Of a stretch of 64,000 nt of DNA, positions 1,717-43,321 are shown in pieces. The position numbers and the translations under genes were made by a program. Position 1 is the first letter of the stretch; each line of letters begins with the position of its first letter. A model generated the notes under the pieces. It was not told the DNA's origin, did not search any database, and was given only the letters and a program-made list of their open reading frames with translations. The stretch lies in sequence record PZ583738.1; one strand, written 5' to 3'. The DNA is from a phage.

Positions 1717-3348
1717 TTATGGTGCTGGATTTAATGTCACAAATGTTGACAAAAGAACCCATGCATTATCAACTAGAACATACGGGAGGCCATCGGCCAC
1801 AGGAGCGACAGGAGGCCTTTTGGCGAGCTCTGTTTCTAAGGCTGATACTTTACCTTCTAAAGTAGTTATCTTCGTCTCGGCCGCATCCAGGCGACCAGGA
1901 AGCGGAGTTACTGTACCTTCAAGAGTTGTCACACGAGTAGTTAATGGTGCGATTTTTGCAGTATCGAGTTTAATTGCATCAATCTCGGTTTTAGCATCGA
2001 TAATTTCAGCCCAGGTTCCTTGCTTACGTCCATATAGCTTATTATCCAGTGGTGCATCGTTCAGCTTGGACGCCATCAGCATATCCAAGTTAATTACAAC
2101 CGGAAGAACACCACGTTCAGCCACAGTAGCACCGTTAGGGTTTGTACCATTCATCTGACTAGTTAAAGTCAAAATAGAACCTTTCATACCAGTGTTATTT
2201 GTACCAATTTCAGCTTGTACATCCTGGAGACCTGATGCAGTTTCGTTAGCCAGCGTAGTGGTTGCATTCAACTTATACGTGATAGTGTTTGGCTCTGGAG
2301 ATTGCTCTGTACCGATTCTCTGAGAAAGCCATGCAGTGGTACCACGCAAACCGGAACTTGAATCCTGGCCAACAACAACCTGTAATCCATTGACATCCGC
2401 TCGTAAAGCACTGATTCGACCATTAATTGTCAATGGCTCCAGTGCTGTTCCAATATCAGCTTCAACCTTAGTGAGTCTTGGTTTGATATTCGCAATATCT
2501 GTTTCATTGACCGAAACACGCCCACCAAGATTTTCAACGCGGGTTGTAATTGCAATCCCTGTACCAAAACCAATAGCTTCTTGAATGTTGGCAATATCTT
2601 CGTCAATTTCGACTGCTTTACCATCAAGAGTATTCAGTCTAACAAATACAGCCGGTTTACCTATTGCTAAAGTAGACTCACCTAATTCTTCGCGAATTTT
2701 AATTACTTTTACGTTAAGAGAACCAACATCAGAATCATGGTAATTGTCCTCAAGAGTCTTAATACGAACTCCATGAGCAACAATAGCAGAACTGTTATCG
2801 ATGATGCGGCGTTTCATGCCTTTTGATGGATTGCCGATAACCTGGAGACCATTTATATCTTGGTCAACATACTGACCTAATTCATTTTTAATCCATACGA
2901 GGTCATTACGAACTGTGCGATAATATGAATCGGTTAACGGGTCATAAGCACCAACATCTTCTTTTAACGTTTTAAGACCTTCGGATGTTTCACTTGACAG
3001 CAATTCGGTATTAAATTGACGTTCATCAAGGTCAAGAATATCCGTACGGTTTTTTTCAATTTGTTTAACAACTTCTGTGTTAGTTGTTATATCCAAAGCT
3101 TCCTGAATATTATTGACGTTATCAATAATTTCGTTGATTTTTTCTTTAGATGCATTTGAGTTGTCGTCGAGTGTATCTACGTTTGTTTGAACGCCAACTG
3201 CAGCGGCGTTCAAATTACCATCATAACCATATTTGGTACTGGCCGCAGTCATACAATCGCCGTTTTGTATCCAACGAATTCTCTGTTGACCTTCGTCTGG
3301 AATACCGATGCTATACGGCAGCTCTTTGAGACTGAGTTTATTAATCAT
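1717..3348 (-). CDS. wac: fibritin (whisker antigen control, neck whiskers)
   Basis: 543 aa from ATG 3348 (MINKLSLKELPYSIGIPDEGQQRIRWIQNG resembles T4 wac N-terminus); long coiled-coil body; C-terminal foldon-like motif PYVLVDNAWVLLSTF; track start 3399 is upstream extension. Confidence 0.85.
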   Translation of the reverse strand: MINKLSLKELPYSIGIPDEGQQRIRWIQNGDCMTAASTKYGYDGNLNAAAVGVQTNVDTLDDNSNASKEKINEIIDNVNNIQEALDITTNTEVVKQIEKNRTDILDLDERQFNTELLSSETSEGLKTLKEDVGAYDPLTDSYYRTVRNDLVWIKNELGQYVDQDINGLQVIGNPSKGMKRRIIDNSSAIVAHGVRIKTLEDNYHDSDVGSLNVKVIKIREELGESTLAIGKPAVFVRLNTLDGKAVEIDEDIANIQEAIGFGTGIAITTRVENLGGRVSVNETDIANIKPRLTKVEADIGTALEPLTINGRISALRADVNGLQVVVGQDSSSGLRGTTAWLSQRIGTEQSPEPNTITYKLNATTTLANETASGLQDVQAEIGTNNTGMKGSILTLTSQMNGTNPNGATVAERGVLPVVINLDMLMASKLNDAPLDNKLYGRKQGTWAEIIDAKTEIDAIKLDTAKIAPLTTRVTTLEGTVTPLPGRLDAAETKITTLEGKVSALETELAKRPPVAPVADGLPYVLVDNAWVLLSTFVTLNPAP

Positions 3349-3356
3349 TTTGGTCC

Positions 3357-4907
3357 TTAGTAATGAATTTTGATAATATAGTTTAAAGACATATTCCATG
3401 GGCGAGTTTCATAACCAATAAGACCTTCACGGTTTAATGTACCTAAAGCATCTCTGCCGCCACCGAGTTCAAATCCATCGTTAGTAAAATATGAAGCGTT
3501 ATCCCAGTCTGCATATTTTCTTGTGCCCAGATAACCCTGATAAACTGATGCACCAAATGGAGCTTCGTTGCGTTGGTATTCACCCCAGCCACCCGCGTGT
3601 TTATGATATGACATTTGCTGAGCTTGTACACCACCGACCCATGAACCATCACAACCAACACCCAAACGGTCTTTGCCATAACCATCTTGACCGCGGTTAT
3701 TCAGAATATGTCCACCGGTACCAGCACCGCGAACAAACAAACCGCGCATATCAGGAATACCGACGTTAGTCCAATCGCCACCAAAACGAGTTCCAACAGT
3801 ATTTCGATAGTCAGGGAATTGGTCACCATTAACGGTGCCACCATGACACATAATCCAACCAGGAGGAGCACTATCACCCGCGAACATCATCACTGTTCCG
3901 ACAGGAACGCGTTCGGAAGCATAACGCTGTGTGGAAAGTAATTGGCCACCCATATGGGCCGTATTAGAATCAAAATTGCCGGTGGAAATATAATCTAAAG
4001 AAAGACTTCCATTAATTCGTTGACCGCCGCGAGTGTTGATTACATCGGCGTTCCAAGCCAGCGCCCCGGCACCGTCACCACCAGGAGCAACCCCAGCCTG
4101 AGTAGTTAATCTAACAACACCGCGAATATCGGTTGTAGCACCACGACCATTAAGAGTTGCTCCGGTTACCGCAACACCATCAGCACTGTTATTAATCTCT
4201 GACTGAGTACCAAGACGAATAATCCCCGCGCGGTCTTGTGTTGCTGTACGAGCATTTAAACCAGCCGGAGAAATTGCTACACCGTCACCCAGAGTTCCTG
4301 CTTGCACTTCAGCATTTGTAGCAATTCGTACTAAACCAGAAACAGTTTGTGTGGCAGTTGAATAAGTCGGAAGAGCTGCTGTTGCTTTGCCAATTGCCAG
4401 AGCAACTTTCAACGGAGACATAGCGGTTGTATCATCTGTACCAGCTAAAGCTGCATCCTCGGTACTAATACGAAGAACACCCAAATTATTTTCGGTACCG
4501 ACACGAACAGCAAAAACATCATCAATTGTTGCTTTTAATGAAGACGGAACAATAGCCGCATCGGTTAATGTCCCGGCAATTGCTTCAGCATTGGTTGCAT
4601 AACGGGTAATACCTACATAAGTTTCTGTGGCTTGCGTAGGGATGTCTAAACGAGCTTTTAAGGTCGCTGGAGTAACTGCAGAGTCTGGACTAATACCATC
4701 AATAACTTCTTGTGTGGTGGCTAGTCTGATGAGTCCTGCAGTCGTTTCGGAAGAGGCTGGGATATATCCATCTAACGCAATTTTATTAAGAGACCCTAAA
4801 GCCTCTTGTACGTTGGTAACAGTCGACGGGAAAGCTGTCCCCGTCGGGTCGAACGTTTTATATTCAGATTTATCGCTAATGTGTTTTAGCGTGTTAGTCG
4901 TTGTCAT
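3357..4907 (-). CDS. 12: short tail fiber protein gp12
   Basis: 516 aa; strong resemblance to T4 gp12 (FDPTGTAFP N-terminus, C-terminal MSYHKHAGG..ETRPWNxSLNYIIK receptor-binding region). Confidence 0.9.
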   Translation of the reverse strand: MTTTNTLKHISDKSEYKTFDPTGTAFPSTVTNVQEALGSLNKIALDGYIPASSETTAGLIRLATTQEVIDGISPDSAVTPATLKARLDIPTQATETYVGITRYATNAEAIAGTLTDAAIVPSSLKATIDDVFAVRVGTENNLGVLRISTEDAALAGTDDTTAMSPLKVALAIGKATAALPTYSTATQTVSGLVRIATNAEVQAGTLGDGVAISPAGLNARTATQDRAGIIRLGTQSEINNSADGVAVTGATLNGRGATTDIRGVVRLTTQAGVAPGGDGAGALAWNADVINTRGGQRINGSLSLDYISTGNFDSNTAHMGGQLLSTQRYASERVPVGTVMMFAGDSAPPGWIMCHGGTVNGDQFPDYRNTVGTRFGGDWTNVGIPDMRGLFVRGAGTGGHILNNRGQDGYGKDRLGVGCDGSWVGGVQAQQMSYHKHAGGWGEYQRNEAPFGASVYQGYLGTRKYADWDNASYFTNDGFELGGGRDALGTLNREGLIGYETRPWNMSLNYIIKIHY

Positions 4908-36067: not shown

Positions 36068-36562
36068 ATGAATATATTCGAAATGTTACGCATAGATGAA
36101 GGTTGTAAGTTGGATTTGTATAAAGATACTGAAGGCTATTGGACCATTGGTATCGGGCAACTGATAACTAAGAACCCATCAAAAGATGTTGCTCGTGCTG
36201 AGCTCGACAAGCTCATGGGTCGCGTCTGCAATGGTCGCATAACCCAACACGAAGCTGAAACATTGTTTAATCGTTCGGTCGAAAAAGCTAAAGCTGGAAT
36301 CTTGAGACATCCTGTCTTAAAACCTGTTTATGATGTACTGGATGAAGTTCGTCGCTGTGCACTCATTAATATGGTATTCCAGATGGGTGTTGCTGGGGTA
36401 GCTGGTTTTCCTAAGGGTATGCGACTTCTGAAGGCTAAATCATGGGAAGCTGCTGCTAAGGAACTAGCTGACTCAAGATGGTATAAAGTCCAGACTCCGA
36501 ATAGGGCAAAACGAGTTATCGAAACTTTCCGTACTGGAACTTTTGACGCATACAAAAGGTAA
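36068..36562 (+). CDS. e: endolysin (T4 lysozyme, muramidase)
   Basis: 164 aa; [57 protein letters not shown] closely matches T4 lysozyme incl. catalytic E11/D20/T26 positions. Confidence 0.95.
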
Positions 36563-36890: not shown

Positions 36891-37307
36891 ATGACACGTA
36901 TTAACTTAACCCTGGTATCTGAACTTGCTGACCAACACCTTATGGCTGAATATCGTGAGCTTCCTCGCGTGTTTGGTGCGGTTCGCAAACATGTACAAAA
37001 TGGTAAAAAGGTTTCTGACTTTAAAATCCCATCATCTTTTCTTTTAGGGACTGGTCATGTCACCTTCTTTTATGATAAACTTTTGTTCCTTAAAAACCGC
37101 CATCAAGAACTTATTGCGGAATGTTTAAAGCGAGGGTTTAACATAAAAGATATTTCTACCCAAGATTTAAATGATATTCCTGATGAATGGAAGAATGATT
37201 ATCAACCATCAATCTGGTCAATTGAAATCAGTCAAGCCAGACTGAATGAGAAAATTTCTCAAAAGCCTACCTGGTACAAATACTATGGGAAAGCAGTGTA
37301 CGCTTAA
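36891..37307 (+). CDS. denV: endonuclease V (pyrimidine dimer DNA glycosylase)
   Basis: 138 aa; [44 protein letters not shown] nearly identical to T4 endonuclease V. Confidence 0.95.
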
Positions 37308-38871: not shown

Positions 38872-39450
<579 letters not shown>

Positions 39451-39451
<1 letters not shown>

Positions 39452-39486
39452 TGTACAAGCAGGTTGAAATGAGTTATGATTATCCC
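39451..39486 (+). promoter_or_regulatory. early promoter (PeSL-like cassette)
   Basis: -35 GTGTAC, 18-nt spacer, -10 TATGAT, then TATCCCATCAAAC leader. Confidence 0.5.
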
Positions 39487-39507
39487 ATCAAACAAAAGGA
39501 GATAATC

Positions 39508-39966
39508 ATGACTACTATCGATTCAAGTGTTTACATTCGCCGCAATAAACTTCGTCGCATTTTTGAAACGGAGTTCCTCAAAATTAATAATGCTATCAAC
39601 AAGGCTTGTAAAGAAGCAGGCCTTGAGGCATTCTTCATTAAGTACAGTCCACACCTGTTGGACCGTGCAATCCAACGTGAAATTGATGAACAATATGTTT
39701 TTGACTTGTTTGGAAAAATCACACCACATGTAAAAGAAATCGTTGAATTCCTGGAGATGAAACCACTCCCGGAAGTTGAAGCACAAATTGACCCGAATGT
39801 GAACTACCGTCCACTTCGTCTGGAAATCACAGACAAGAACCTATGGTTAGGAATGACAGTTAACCCAGCTCTTCCTGGGAAGTCTCCGACCATGTGTTGT
39901 CGTATGGCGTTTGTTAACTCTAATCGTCTGGAAGGAAAAATTAGCACAAAAGTGATTTATATCTAA
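39508..39966 (+). CDS. regB: RegB-like site-specific endoribonuclease
   Basis: 152 aa from ATG 39508 with SD AAGGAG; VYIRRNKLRRIFETEF and HLLDRAIQREIDEQYVF match my recollection of T4 RegB (153 aa); position between denV and tk. Confidence 0.55.
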   Translation: MTTIDSSVYIRRNKLRRIFETEFLKINNAINKACKEAGLEAFFIKYSPHLLDRAIQREIDEQYVFDLFGKITPHVKEIVEFLEMKPLPEVEAQIDPNVNYRPLRLEITDKNLWLGMTVNPALPGKSPTMCCRMAFVNSNRLEGKISTKVIYI

Positions 39967-39976
39967 TGAGGAATTC

Positions 39977-40519
39977 ATGAAAAAAGTAATCGCCACCTTA
40001 CTATTGACAGTTAGTATGTCTGCCCATAGCGTAGAGCCTACTTTCAGTAATGAACAAATGGGGAACCTCCAATATGCTTATGCGTTTGGAGAACAGTTCC
40101 AGAAAAATGGTAAGTACAAAGAAAATCCGCACCAACATAATGGTTTGGGATATATCATGGCTGGTTTAGCCTGGCAGGAAAGTTCTGCTGGGATTAATAC
40201 TGGATTAAATAAAGATAAGCATCATGCATATGGTATATTCCAAAATTATCTTCCAACCGTGCGCGAACGCGTGAAACAGGTTGGGTGGACAATGACAGAT
40301 AAAGAAATAATCAAGATGATAAGCAAGAGAGAGAACAGCGCACGCTGGGCTTATATTGAGCTTTCATACTGGTTGAATATTCATAAGGGGGATATAAGGA
40401 AAACACTATCATCATATAACGCAGGGTGGAATGTGAAAGCTGGTAATACGTATGCTTCACAGGTCCTAGAAAAAGCTAACTACTTAAAATCACGAGGCCT
40501 ATTAAAAACGGTGGATTAA
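39977..40519 (+). CDS. secreted lytic-transglycosylase-like (SLT domain) protein
   Basis: 180 aa; signal peptide MKKVIATLLLTVSMSAHS; SLT-like motifs GLAWQESS, AYGIFQ, SYNAGW. Confidence 0.5.
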   Translation: MKKVIATLLLTVSMSAHSVEPTFSNEQMGNLQYAYAFGEQFQKNGKYKENPHQHNGLGYIMAGLAWQESSAGINTGLNKDKHHAYGIFQNYLPTVRERVKQVGWTMTDKEIIKMISKRENSARWAYIELSYWLNIHKGDIRKTLSSYNAGWNVKAGNTYASQVLEKANYLKSRGLLKTVD

Positions 40520-40521
40520 AA

Positions 40522-40881
40522 ATGGTAAGAGTTATCACTTTAGCCATAGGGTTAGTATTCAGCATGGGAGGAATAGCTTCAGTACAGAGCGATGACAACA
40601 ACAGCATCATAGAATATGCAACGAGGACGGCTAAAGATTATTGCGCAGCAAGCAATGTGGATTGTGTAATCCAGTTCAGTGCCAAGCTCACCGCAGCCTA
40701 TAAAGATGGCCAAAATGATGTTGAACATACGCTTTTGAAAAAGAATGTATTATCCAACAAATATGAAAAGAAATTATTTGAAATGGATTGCATTCTATCA
40801 AGTGCAAAATATAAGGCGGCCTGCACCAGTATGGTTGACAGGTTAGTGGATTCATATAATAGAGGATTGAACTCTAAATGA
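40522..40881 (+). CDS. secreted/periplasmic protein of unknown function
   Basis: 119 aa; N-terminal signal-like hydrophobic segment; four cysteines. Confidence 0.45.
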   Translation: MVRVITLAIGLVFSMGGIASVQSDDNNSIIEYATRTAKDYCAASNVDCVIQFSAKLTAAYKDGQNDVEHTLLKKNVLSNKYEKKLFEMDCILSSAKYKAACTSMVDRLVDSYNRGLNSK

Positions 40882-41351
40882 TTACCCAGTATATTAAGGG
40901 CGATATCGTCGCCCTCTTTCTTAGTGGTAAAAACATTGCACATGGTTGCAATTGCTTCCATACAATGGGTTCAGGCGTAGCTGGTCAGTTGGCGAAGGCT
41001 TATCCAAGGATTTTAGAAATAGACAAAACCTCAACCGACTATGGTTACAGAGGAAAACTCGGTGATATGTCTATTGTTTTCAAATATTCCCGAGGTCCGT
41101 CAACTTGCTTTAATCTTTACACCCAATATGAACCAGGACCAAATCTTGATTATCATGCTTTAGTAAATTGTATGGTAGAATTAAATCGAGTCCTGAGTGA
41201 AGGAACACTATTCCGACCAGTGGTTTATATCCCACGGATTGGATGTGGTATTGCAGGTGGAGATTGGGAAAAGGTCTCTATGTTAATTGATATTTTTACC
41301 CCTGACATTGATTTGATAGTGGTGGATTATGAGCCAAGCCCGAATTCTTAA
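40878..41351 (+). CDS. macrodomain (ADP-ribose-binding/processing) protein
   Basis: 157 aa; GDIVALFLSGKNIAHGCNCFHTMGSGVAGQL fits macro-domain N-terminal signature; second glycine-rich motif IGCGIAGGDWE. Confidence 0.55.
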   Translation: MITQYIKGDIVALFLSGKNIAHGCNCFHTMGSGVAGQLAKAYPRILEIDKTSTDYGYRGKLGDMSIVFKYSRGPSTCFNLYTQYEPGPNLDYHALVNCMVELNRVLSEGTLFRPVVYIPRIGCGIAGGDWEKVSMLIDIFTPDIDLIVVDYEPSPNS

Positions 41352-41535
41352 AACGGCCAAATGTGAAAAATGTGAATGGCCAGTAATCGCAGCTTTGTGC
41401 AACGATGAAATGGAATGTGAATTTGATTACTGGTGGTACTGTTCTAATAAAGGATGTTCTAATCATAAGGGTGAAGGTTTTCATTCTGGTTATTGCGAAC
41501 ATCCTAAATTTGTGCGATATGGGGAACCGAAATGA
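41329..41535 (+). CDS. cysteine-rich small protein (putative zinc-binding)
   Basis: 68 aa with 8 Cys (CEKCEWP, CNDEMEC, YCSNKGC, YCEH). Confidence 0.4.
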   Translation: MSQARILKTAKCEKCEWPVIAALCNDEMECEFDYWWYCSNKGCSNHKGEGFHSGYCEHPKFVRYGEPK

Positions 41536-41717
41536 GTTTAAGCATTAGTCAGAAAAGTAGATTATTTGAGCTTATCCATGAGCTTTTGGATGAGCATACG
41601 GAAGCAAATGCTTTTTATGATGAATATGGCCCGATAGATGCCGACCATCAGGAAGAATTTGCCAATCGATTTGATGCGAAAGAAAACGAATTAATAGCTT
41701 ATGTGAATACGCTTTAA
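41532..41717 (+). CDS. hypothetical small acidic protein
   Basis: 61 aa; C-terminus ENELIAYVNTL similar to ORF 43819-44001. Confidence 0.4.
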   Translation: MSLSISQKSRLFELIHELLDEHTEANAFYDEYGPIDADHQEEFANRFDAKENELIAYVNTL

Positions 41718-41726
41718 GAAGGTGAT

Positions 41727-42299
41727 ATGGCGAGTTTAATTTATCATTACGCAGCAATGAATGCAGGCAAAACAGCTTCATTGCTGACTGCAGCTTATTC
41801 CTATAAAGAGCGTGGAATGAGTGTGCTTTTGCTAAAACCTGTTATTGATAATCGGGACTCGGAAGGCGAAATTAAATCACGCATCGGTATTAGCCAGGAA
41901 GCAAACCTGGTAACGGCCGACATGAACCTGTTTGAATTCTATAAATGGGCCGAGTCTCAAAAGGATATCCATTGTGTCCTGGTCGATGAAGCTCAATTTT
42001 TGTTACCAGAGCAAATTGACCAGTTAGCTCAAGTGGTTGATAATTACAATATCCCCGTTATGTGTTACGGGCTAAGAACAGATTTTCGGGGTCAATTATT
42101 TCCCGGTTCGGCCAGACTTCTGGCTATTTCGGATAAACTGGTTGAATTAAAGGGCGTCTGTCATTGCGGCCGGAAAGCAACCATGACCGCTCGAGTAATC
42201 GACGGTGCTGCTGTAAAGGACGGCGAGCAAGTATTGGTCGGTGGGAATGAATCGTACGTATCTTTGTGCAGAAAACATTGGCTCGAATTAACAAGCTGA
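41727..42299 (+). CDS. tk: thymidine kinase
   Basis: 190 aa; P-loop AMNAGKTASLL, VLVDEAQF, zinc ribbon CHCGRKA..C; size matches T4 tk (about 193 aa). Confidence 0.9.
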   Translation: MASLIYHYAAMNAGKTASLLTAAYSYKERGMSVLLLKPVIDNRDSEGEIKSRIGISQEANLVTADMNLFEFYKWAESQKDIHCVLVDEAQFLLPEQIDQLAQVVDNYNIPVMCYGLRTDFRGQLFPGSARLLAISDKLVELKGVCHCGRKATMTARVIDGAAVKDGEQVLVGGNESYVSLCRKHWLELTS

Positions 42300-42306
42300 G
42301 GTTCGC

Positions 42307-42582
42307 ATGGTATACAAGGTTTGGACGTATATCTCTATTTTGATATTCCTGGTTTTGGTTTTTGTTCCTATGCAACAGGACCAGGAAAGGTATGAGCGCG
42401 AAGTCGAAATCGTTGCAAGTACCTATCACTCGTTCAACAAAGAGTGCCCGAATAAAAACGGAATAAGCCTGCAACAAGCGTACTATTTGTCAACGATTAC
42501 CAGCCCAAAACAACGGGTCTGGGTCGAACGTAATTTTGCAAGTTTATTTTCAGAGTACTGCTTTAATTTTAAAAGATTATAA
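42307..42582 (+). CDS. small membrane protein (rI.1 position)
   Basis: 91 aa; N-terminal transmembrane helix. Confidence 0.45.
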   Translation: MVYKVWTYISILIFLVLVFVPMQQDQERYEREVEIVASTYHSFNKECPNKNGISLQQAYYLSTITSPKQRVWVERNFASLFSEYCFNFKRL

Positions 42583-42654
42583 ATACAGTTACTAACTAGT
42601 ATTCCGCTATGTTAAGGCTGCAAAGCGTAATCATGACCAACAATAGGAGTCCTT

Positions 42655-42948
42655 ATGGACCTTATTCGAGGACTTTCATTAAGTCTAATAATCCTGGGCT
42701 GTTTAGGCCCAAATCTGTCCTCTGCAACAGAGGGGAAGTTTACCCAATATGCAGATAGTGCGATGAAGATTTATTCGCAATTCAAAGAACCAAGCGTGCA
42801 CCAATCCGAACAGTTCTGGGCGTTTATCAAGACTGAATGGAACAACAAAAGCCAATGCGAAACTGAAATTACCTGCAAAAGCGATGGTAAAGCTGCGGCG
42901 AGAGAGTACGCTAAATTAATGAAGGTAAAATTGGAAGATGAAATTTGA
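42655..42948 (+). CDS. rI: lysis inhibition regulator RI (antiholin)
   Basis: 97 aa; signal-anchor N-terminus; SVHQSEQFWAFIKTEWNNKSQC and AKLMKVKLE resemble T4 RI (97 aa). Confidence 0.7.
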   Translation: MDLIRGLSLSLIILGCLGPNLSSATEGKFTQYADSAMKIYSQFKEPSVHQSEQFWAFIKTEWNNKSQCETEITCKSDGKAAAREYAKLMKVKLEDEI

Positions 42949-43321
42949 TGATTTCGTAACGGGTCGTGGGTCTGAGGTGGATTCATATATTGGGTGGTTG
43001 TTAGTCTCTTTGGCTTATTTTAAGTCCGCCCATCTTGAAACCAAAAGTTACGCCCGCCATAAAGCTTATGATTTCTACTTCACAGAAATCCAAGGTCCAC
43101 TCGACCAGTTCAGTGAGCAATGGTTAGGTTACAGCGGGAAACAATACAAAGCTGCATTACCGTCCGCCTCGGACTTGCCGAAAGATACAATTTTGTTTTT
43201 AGATGAAATGATTAAAAGCTCGGAAAGAGTCTATAAAGTTGTACCCAAGGCTATTCAATCGACTCTGGACGATATCGTTGGAGTTTTCTTTCAGACTAAG
43301 TATCTGTTAACACTAGAGTAA
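42938..43321 (+). CDS. hypothetical protein (rI.-1 position)
   Basis: 127 aa; followed by strong terminator. Confidence 0.5.
   Translation: MKFDDFVTGRGSEVDSYIGWLLVSLAYFKSAHLETKSYARHKAYDFYFTEIQGPLDQFSEQWLGYSGKQYKAALPSASDLPKDTILFLDEMIKSSERVYKVVPKAIQSTLDDIVGVFFQTKYLLTLE

Follow-up and report, generated by a model that had tools for sequence, protein, structure and literature searches.

The sequence record PZ583738.1 comprises 64,000 nucleotides (nt) of phage DNA, here referred to as the window. An original prediction made from the sequence alone had proposed that two adjacent open reading frames (ORFs) of this window encode a secreted SLT-like lytic transglycosylase and, paired with it, a second secreted protein. 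Both ORFs are present on the plus strand, and by sequence comparison they are the orthologues of the phage T4 genes vs.1 and vs:

39977..40519, plus strand: vs.1 orthologue, 180 amino acids (aa)
40522..40881, plus strand: vs orthologue, 119 aa

Judged from sequence, the first product, Vs.1, is very likely a soluble periplasmic lytic transglycosylase of family 1 (SLT, GH23-type). The SLT interpretation of this protein stands, but the T4 identity of the two genes, which is already found in the literature and in GenBank, had been missed.

Orthologues of T4 vs.1 and vs in the window

A megablast search with positions 39400-41600 returned 99 phage records, headed by the Escherichia phages DK-13 (98.7%) and TH44 and by Shigella phage SP18 and its relatives. 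SP18 is classified within Straboviridae, Tevenvirinae, Gaprivervirus, and the window is from a T4-like, SP18/TH44-like phage of this genus. The T4 gene order is kept around the two genes, which are part of a conserved array regB–vs.1–vs–tk.4.

Vs.1 matched phrog_600 over residues 1-178 (E 2.6e-67) and is 65% identical to T4-type proteins over the full length and 100% identical to the protein of phage TH44. Its length of 180 aa (181 aa in T4), its N-terminus and its position downstream of regB, which is common to T4, SP18 and Karamvirus, likewise correspond to T4 Vs.1 (T4p112, UniProt P13311, PHROG 600), and the divergence between the two proteins is no more than that typical of another genus (Tequatrovirus versus Gaprivervirus). 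A tblastn search with Vs.1 identified 2071 phage records, far more than chance would give, including phages of Klebsiella, Salmonella, Aeromonas, Acinetobacter and Vibrio. The product of the second ORF matched phrog_1256 over residues 1-118 (E 1.4e-32) and is 45% identical to T4 Vs (T4p111, UniProt P13310), which is annotated as 'valyl-tRNA synthetase modifier'; PF26829 was found on all 28 Vs relatives. The protein originally described as a second secreted one does possess a signal-like N-terminus, but as an orthologue of T4 Vs it is not anonymous.

Similarity of T4 Vs.1 and five relatives to SLT was already reported in 2006, citing work of 2003 (PMC1524935), relatives in GenBank and UniRef are named 'SLT domain-containing protein' or 'lytic transglycosylase domain-containing protein', and deposited proteins are 98-100% identical to those of the window. 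Many other GenBank and UniRef records, including those of Ackermannviridae, label Vs.1 homologues as 'endoribonuclease', 'protein RegB' or 'site-specific RNA endonuclease', which looks like an annotation error that has spread from the neighboring regB.

Catalytic motifs and fold of Vs.1

The Vs.1 family was aligned using 35 sequences with 41-78% identity. The following motifs were located in the window protein:

40178..40183, plus strand: motif I, catalytic Glu68-Ser69 in WQESSAG; E68 invariant in the 35 sequences
40232..40243, plus strand: motif II, G86-I-F-Q89, equivalent of G-L-M-Q; G86 and Q89 invariant, aligned to AIGLMQ of MltE
40412..40426, plus strand: motif III, S146-Y-N-A-G150, equivalent of A-Y-N-x-G; Y147, N148 and G150 invariant
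40451..40465, plus strand: candidate motif IV, Y159-A-S-Q-V163 (Y-x-x-x-V); Y159 invariant, V163 at least 90% conserved

Within motif I, conservation of S69 is 90% or more, and the invariant residues of the family include W66, E68, S70, G86, Q89, N90, E128, W132, Y147, N148, G150 and Y159. The three motifs that had been read from the sequence at the outset, QESS (67-70), AYGIFQ (84-89) and SYNAGW (146-151), are all present and fall on invariant or near-invariant columns. Y159-x-x-x-V163, which lies outside the stretch aligned by hhalign, was assigned by inspection and is what we take to be motif IV of the family-1 scheme of Blackburn and Clarke.

For comparison with characterized enzymes, a template profile was constructed from the aligned domains of MltE, Slt70, MltC, MltD and MltF of E. 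coli K-12. All five contain an E-S motif at the position which we take to be catalytic (MltE E64, Slt70 E505 of the precursor, MltC E217, MltD E125 and MltF E314). A 39-sequence Vs.1 profile aligned with this five-enzyme profile by hhalign at E 2.9e-4 over 87 columns, in which Glu68 occupies the column of the catalytic glutamate (MltE E64 and its four equivalents), AYGIFQ that of AIGLMQ, and SYNAGW that of YNxG. Against MltE alone the motifs were aligned correctly, but the match was not significant (probability 0.35%, E 0.17). Pfam SLT (PF01464) was matched by 34 of the 35 Vs.1 relatives at E < 0.1, with a best E of 1.3e-7, and several relatives have a precomputed PF01464 match. An AlphaFold2 model of Vs.1 generated from the family alignment (pLDDT, the predicted local distance difference test, 85.8; pTM, the predicted template modeling score, 0.79) tested positive for the lysozyme-like, all-alpha SLT/goose-lysozyme fold, and MltE and the 'specialized' transglycosylase EtgA were among its closest compact structural matches. 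The two features on which the original prediction had staked the SLT assignment, the fold and a catalytic glutamate in the alignment, were thus both recovered. Orthology, fold, catalytic residue, signal-peptide architecture and synteny are established computationally.

Several results weigh against the assignment. Taken alone, the window protein scored 16 bits against Pfam SLT (E 0.0088), below the gathering threshold of 21.3 bits, in the SLT profile scan that had been proposed as a check. A single-sequence phmmer search of PDB sequences with Vs.1 yielded no match, and the family profile found only chance-level similarities in the same set (a metacaspase at E 0.29, a g-type lysozyme at E 0.83). 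The top Foldseek matches of the model were SLT-type families, but with weak E values of 0.08 or higher. Furthermore, a transglycosylase and a hydrolytic muramidase cannot be told apart from the sequence of Vs.1, and 1,6-anhydro-N-acetylmuramic acid (1,6-anhydroMurNAc) products would be expected by analogy with the family.

Predicted signal peptides of both proteins

The N-termini of 64 family members were judged by the classical n-h-c rules and by conservation, not by a trained predictor. In the window, the following signal peptides were predicted:

39977..40030, plus strand: Vs.1 signal peptide, residues 1-18, MKKVIATLLLTVSMSAHS; rule-based cleavage between AHS and VEP
40522..40581, plus strand: Vs signal peptide, residues 1-20, MVRVITLAIGLVFSMGGIAS; cleavage between IAS and V at residue 20, alternatively after VQS23, before D

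As had been claimed for both ORFs, the N-termini are signal-like: one to two Lys/Arg residues precede a hydrophobic stretch of 11-18 residues without charges, and a small-x-small site follows. This n-h-c architecture is kept in 33 of the 34 Vs.1 relatives and in 27 of the 28 Vs relatives, though the sequence itself diverges. Nearly all members lack an acidic residue before the core, reach a maximal 9-residue Kyte-Doolittle mean of 2-3.9 and possess the cleavage-site pattern A/V/S/T-x-A/S/G at residues 16-23; T4 Vs has a canonical ASA site followed by D. The architecture persists down to 25-35% identity; the distant homologues that show it, at about 30% identity, are those of Lazarusvirus AM101, Slopekvirus KP15, Mooglevirus Sf15, Kuttervirus bering, an Aeromonas phage and Vibrio phage nt-1. 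The free drift of residues in this region, with conservation starting only in the mature domain, is what a cleaved signal peptide would show and strongly argues against a structural element. In the models, the variable N-terminal region of Vs.1 is separate from the SLT core and predicted with less confidence, and that of Vs has a pLDDT below 50 over residues 1-23. The GenBank depositors of AM101 also assigned a 'putative periplasmic secretion signal' to both vs.1 and vs.

Two other readings of the Vs.1 N-terminus were rejected. The protein has no lipobox cysteine as required for a lipoprotein, and for a signal-anchor-release (SAR) endolysin or a membrane anchor the core VIATLLLTVSM does not have the length (about 11 residues), and an A-x-S cleavage motif comes after it.

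In the SP18 deposit (GQ981382.1), vs.1 and vs start at internal Met codons (3617-4120 and 4165-4482; 167 and 105 aa), by which both signal peptides are cut off. Upstream in-frame ATGs in SP18 give forms of 180 and 119 aa, as in the window and T4.

Vs is a predicted disulfide-bonded four-helix protein

Four cysteines had been noted in the second ORF. They are invariant or nearly so in the family and are encoded at:

40642-40644, plus strand: C41
40663-40665, plus strand: C48
40789-40791, plus strand: C90
40822-40824, plus strand: C101

The C-terminal SMVDRLVDSYNRGL is nearly invariant as well and is shared with T4 Vs, which also has the same four cysteines, the signal-like N-terminus and the position between vs.1 and tk.4; no structural difference between the two proteins was apparent. 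The spacing C-x(5-6)-C ... C-x(8-10)-C is retained in the Vs homologues of KP15 and AM101 at about 25-35% identity. AlphaFold modeled Vs as disordered over residues 1-23, followed by a four-helix bundle (24-40, 46-69, 74-90 and 95-116; pLDDT about 85-90) with the cysteine pairs at the junctions of helices 1-2 and helices 3-4. We predict for mature Vs a disulfide-stapled four-helix bundle of about 11 kDa that is exported by Sec. A search of 1.84 billion representative proteins with the Vs profile returned only 8 clusters and no bacterial relatives. Comparison with the lysozyme and transglycosylase inhibitors Ivy, PliC/MliC, PliG and T4 Spackle revealed no similarity of fold or sequence. In a representative protein of 3694 aa, 17 separate stretches matched the Vs profile at its positions 14-54 (E 5e-10); this protein is probably repetitive and similar to the signal peptide and first helix of Vs.

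Historically, vs has been assigned as the factor modifying the host valyl-tRNA synthetase (ValRS), a cytoplasmic enzyme. A conserved signal peptide, four cysteines and exported neighbors conflict with such a target, and no discussion of this conflict was found in the literature searched. The computed mass of T4 Vs is 13.06 kDa for the precursor and 11.05 kDa for the mature protein, and the factor purified originally in the 1970s was reportedly of roughly 10 kDa. The mature form is nearer to this value, which would imply processing and, hence, export.

Gene neighborhood

The two genes are surrounded by the following genes:

36068..36562, plus strand: homologue of lysozyme e (endolysin), 164-aa ORF with an N-terminus as in T4 lysozyme, recognized by sequence, not by profile
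36891-37307: denV, between e and the vs.8-vs.3 homologues
Upstream of regB: vs.8-vs.3 homologues, assigned by synteny with SP18
39508..39966, plus strand: regB, site-specific endoribonuclease, directly upstream of vs.1; Pfam REGB_T4, E 5.7e-72
40878..41351, plus strand: tk.4 macrodomain gene, orthologue of T4 tk.4; Pfam Macro, E 1.8e-6; phrog_335
Downstream of tk.4: tk.3, tk.2, then tk (41727-42299)
42307-42582: small membrane ORF with an N-terminal hydrophobic segment, phrog_6298, directly upstream of rI
42655..42948, plus strand: homologue of the exported antiholin rI; phrog_1246 'lysis inhibition', E 2e-31
42938-43321: rI.-1, downstream of rI

The placement of the pair between a regB-like gene and a macrodomain gene was correct. 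However, the two genes are not far from the lysis genes e and rI, as had been stated: e ends only 3.4 kb upstream and rI starts 1.8 kb downstream, and T4 shares this layout of e, vs.1–vs and rI. A ribosome-binding site, GAGGA, is located 6 nt upstream of the vs.1 ORF, vs starts 2 nt past the vs.1 stop, and the vs stop and the tk.4 start share the sequence ATGA. When the surroundings of vs.1 and vs were scanned for promoters and terminators, no signals rose above shuffled expectation. A motif search directly upstream of vs.1 identified no convincing early or middle promoter, so that co-transcription with regB is an assumption, and no T4 late-promoter-like motif was found before vs.1 or vs.

A GC-rich hairpin of 8 bp with a T-rich tract behind it (AGGGCGATATCGTCGCCCT CTTTCTTAGT) occurs at 40897-40915, 16 nt past the vs stop and inside the 5' part of tk.4. 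It could be an attenuator, an RNA-processing or stability element or a chance occurrence, the latter because terminator-like sites of the region are not above shuffled expectation. A T4 late-promoter-like TATAAATA was found at 42578-42585, some 70 nt ahead of the start of rI. The start of regB is likely the ATG at 39508, which is preceded by AAGGAG and yields a protein of 152 aa; the mechanical ORF list uses a GTG at 39451 (39451-39966), and the Pfam match begins at residue 23 of this longer ORF. AAGGAG places GGAG in the Shine-Dalgarno position, the type of motif that is cleaved by RegB itself.

Pairing of vs.1 and vs across phages

Three divergent Vs queries retrieved 808, 176 and 365 records by tblastn, sets which may overlap; all matches among those examined belong to Straboviridae. 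The order regB–vs.1–vs is found in Gaprivervirus and Tequatrovirus (Tevenvirinae) and in Karamvirus, while in Lazarusvirus (Twarogvirinae) vs.1 and vs are adjacent with regB not upstream. Slopekvirus KP15 has three ORFs, a terminator and a middle promoter between the two genes. Vs.1 is without a Vs-like gene beside it in Kuttervirus bering (Ackermannviridae), Mooglevirus Sf15 (Ounavirinae), Aeromonas phage GomatiRiver_11 and Vibrio phage nt-1. The proposed pairing of the two secreted proteins is therefore overstated. Adjacency is conserved in many genera of Straboviridae, but Slopekvirus breaks it, and Vs is missing next to Vs.1 in Ackermannviridae, Mooglevirus, the Aeromonas phage and Vibrio phage nt-1. 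Since it is present without a neighboring Vs in several lineages, Vs.1 is a self-sufficient module and Vs a frequent, lineage-restricted neighbor. In addition, T4-like early regions are packed end to end, and adjacency is for this reason weak evidence of a functional pair.

In Acinetobacter phage AM101, the genes vs.1, vs, orf134, orf133 and rI are consecutive (2459-4305), and all five carry a 'putative periplasmic secretion signal' in GenBank, where vs.1 is annotated as 'putative lytic murein transglycosylase'. This run of secretion-signal genes is suggestive of an envelope context for vs.1. By eye, AM101 orf133 resembles the window ORF at 42307-42582, and both are directly upstream of rI; relative to AM101, the window has tk.4-tk inserted between vs and the small ORF–rI. 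Outside of Straboviridae, the Vs.1 homologue of Shigella phage Sf15 (2501-3049) keeps the signal peptide and the E-S motif; its gene has rIIA/rIIB on one side and polynucleotide kinase on the other, and the i-/o-spanin genes follow about 1.2 kb downstream.

Comparison with known murein-cleaving enzymes

Vs.1 has the catalytic Glu-Ser, G-x-x-Q and Y-N-x-G in common with E. coli MltE/EmtA, Slt70, MltC, MltD and MltF, at an identity of only 12-17%, and shares the position between regB and vs, the signal-peptide architecture and the motifs with T4 Vs.1. Like Vs.1, MltE (about 200 aa) is a single-domain enzyme. MltC, MltD and MltE are outer-membrane lipoproteins; in contrast, Vs.1 is predicted to be soluble and without a lipobox. 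It also lacks LysM, the superhelical ring of Slt70 and the ABC-like module of MltF, and, unlike the E. coli enzymes, it is phage-encoded and expressed early and has a family-specific conserved N-terminal helix at residues 25-38 (Q27, N30, A34, Y35 and G38).

A further likeness is to EtgA of a type III system, a small single-domain SLT protein with a signal peptide which is thought to cut local gaps into the murein without lysis; VirB1, P19 of plasmid R1 and IpgF are further specialized transglycosylases of this kind. EtgA is tied to an envelope-spanning machine, whereas Vs.1 has no known partner machine, and EtgA uses an extra Asp (title of PDB 4xp8, D60N mutant) at a position that is not conserved in Vs.1. 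Among the phage enzymes, phiKZ gp144, the N-terminal domain of T7 gp16 and phi6 P5 act at entry, as part of the virion, or at lysis. Being early, predicted to be Sec-exported and non-virion, Vs.1 differs from these and is nearer to the bacterial housekeeping enzymes.

Proposed role of Vs.1

In a time-resolved omics study of T4, vs.1 and vs were both classed as 'early-RNA_middle-Protein' (PMC9697503 supplement), which indicates that both proteins are made in infected cells. The explanation that we favor, and consider fairly probable, is that Vs.1 is an early exported transglycosylase performing limited, non-lethal murein cleavage. We infer from the sequence-based evidence that it is exported and active and of what type its products and role may be, as follows. 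Vs.1 would be made from early transcripts together with regB, exported by Sec and cut behind AHS18, which would free it into the periplasm as a soluble enzyme with a computed mature mass of about 18.6 kDa and a basic isoelectric point of 9.5. Glu68 would serve as the single acid/base catalyst for cutting the bonds between N-acetylmuramic acid and N-acetylglucosamine (MurNAc-GlcNAc) of the host murein, leaving the 1,6-anhydroMurNAc ends. The enzyme would be at the wall minutes after infection without the need of a holin. T4 that is defective in the endolysin gene e does not lyse its host, which, together with the early, holin-independent access, suggests that the activity of Vs.1 is limited and non-lethal, as is that of the transglycosylases of the host itself, and that Vs.1 is no lysin in its own right. 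MltE and EtgA, to which the model of Vs.1 is structurally close, likewise act locally and do not lyse the cell. Its cleavage of glycan strands may let the infected, and especially the lysis-inhibited, cell keep expanding, and the sacculus may be primed for fast breakdown upon release of the endolysin. This specific physiological role in wall loosening or turnover is put forward tentatively.

The published record also counts against such a role. A genome-wide transposon study of T4 does not mention vs.1 in its main text for any condition (bioRxiv 10.1101/2025.11.20.689424), and a literature search for an activity or phenotype of Vs.1 yielded only the comparative-genomics note of 2006, the expression class and a phenotype that belongs to vs, not to vs.1. 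Lysis timing, superinfection exclusion and wall remodeling, the roles that had been suggested originally, are conjecture.

The genomic setting may also suit an auxiliary lysis enzyme that, independently of the holin, sets or sharpens lysis timing alongside e and the RI/T lysis-inhibition circuit. Vs.1 is predicted to be exported and has a muramidase-type fold with an intact active site, a single block of 7 kb holds vs.1 together with e and rI, the AM101 gene is positioned four genes upstream of rI within the run of secretion-signal genes, and the Sf15 homologue is found between rIIA/rIIB and the spanin genes. However, T4 vs.1 RNA is early and the lysis genes are late, and the failure of e-defective T4 to lyse its host argues that Vs.1 alone cannot degrade the wall sufficiently. 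No lysis phenotype of vs.1 was found in the literature searched, and a paper on T4 Spackle, which covers the two T4 lysozymes, gene e and the tail-associated gp5, counts only e and gene 5 as T4 genes for proteins of lysozyme activity (PMC7650644). Such an auxiliary role in lysis timing is unlikely.

It has also to be considered whether Vs.1 and Vs form a periplasmic module, in which Vs would serve Vs.1 or a different protein of lysozyme fold as a bound inhibitor, chaperone or targeting factor, by analogy with the pairs of Ivy or PliG with lysozymes and of T4 Spackle with gp5 lysozyme. Spackle (gp61.3) of T4 is a periplasmic protein, small and helical and made with a signal peptide, which binds and inhibits the lysozyme domain of gp5. 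Vs is also small and helical with two putative disulfides and has no bacterial relatives; the likeness is by analogy only, and no fold similarity of Spackle to the Vs model was detected. Both Vs.1 and Vs are predicted to be exported, and their genes are 2 nt apart in the window, overlap in T4 and AM101 and recur as regB–vs.1–vs in Tevenvirinae (including Karamvirus) and as vs.1–vs in Twarogvirinae. Against this stand the lack of a detectable Vs beside Vs.1 in Ackermannviridae, Mooglevirus, the Aeromonas phage and Vibrio phage nt-1, the three ORFs, terminator and promoter that part the genes in KP15, and the tight packing of T4-like early regions, by which adjacency becomes weak evidence. We consider a module of this kind quite unlikely.

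In a third scenario, neither hydrophobic N-terminus directs export; Vs acts on cytoplasmic ValRS, and Vs.1 is kept in the cytoplasm up to the opening of the membrane by the holin. The older view of vs as a ValRS modifier would agree with this, and the signal peptides were called by rules and not by SignalP. In addition, vs was the most depleted gene in T4 transposon sequencing on M9-glucose relative to LB, and a clean T4 vs knockout plates poorly on M9-glucose, which fits a role in amino-acid metabolism or translation; the same study identifies T4 tk.4 as AdfM, an anti-DarTG2 macrodomain counter-defense factor (bioRxiv 10.1101/2025.11.20.689424). Nevertheless, n-h-c architecture and small-x-small site are kept in nearly all relatives despite residue drift, also at 25-35% identity, with the mature domain starting thereafter, and independent annotators assigned a periplasmic secretion signal to both proteins. 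Four conserved cysteines suit an oxidizing compartment, and mature T4 Vs (11.05 kDa) is nearer than the 13.06-kDa precursor to the factor that is said to be about 10 kDa. A cytoplasmic location of both proteins thus appears improbable. Finally, that Vs.1 is a catalytically dead pseudo-enzyme only binding or marking peptidoglycan is most improbable, as relatives with as little as about 30% identity, other virus families included, show little or no variation at the catalytic Glu and in all four motifs, the pattern of an active enzyme, even though the window protein falls below the Pfam gathering threshold and no demonstrated Vs.1 activity is on record.

Implications

Orthology, SLT similarity (2003/2006) and secretion signals were already on record, so the finding is real but known, and the function of Vs.1 is no more testable in the window phage than in T4. 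Of more use is a by-product, the periplasmic location predicted for Vs, as opposed to its textbook cytoplasmic target. It is a doubtful proposal that the Vs family are Sec-exported, disulfide-bonded periplasmic proteins which belong to an envelope cassette with Vs.1, and in some lineages RI, and act as regulators or partners of murein cleavage. If Vs is indeed periplasmic, its link to ValRS would be indirect, would stem from a non-exported fraction or would arise after cell breakage, and the minimal-medium defect of T4 vs mutants would be an envelope phenotype. With regard to Vs.1, more than 2000 sequenced lytic phages of Straboviridae, Ackermannviridae and Ounavirinae would possess a conserved, early, predicted exported murein-cleaving enzyme. 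No role is on record for it even in T4, the best-studied phage. Once understood, it would extend the account of how large virulent phages handle the wall of their hosts by a step that needs no holin.

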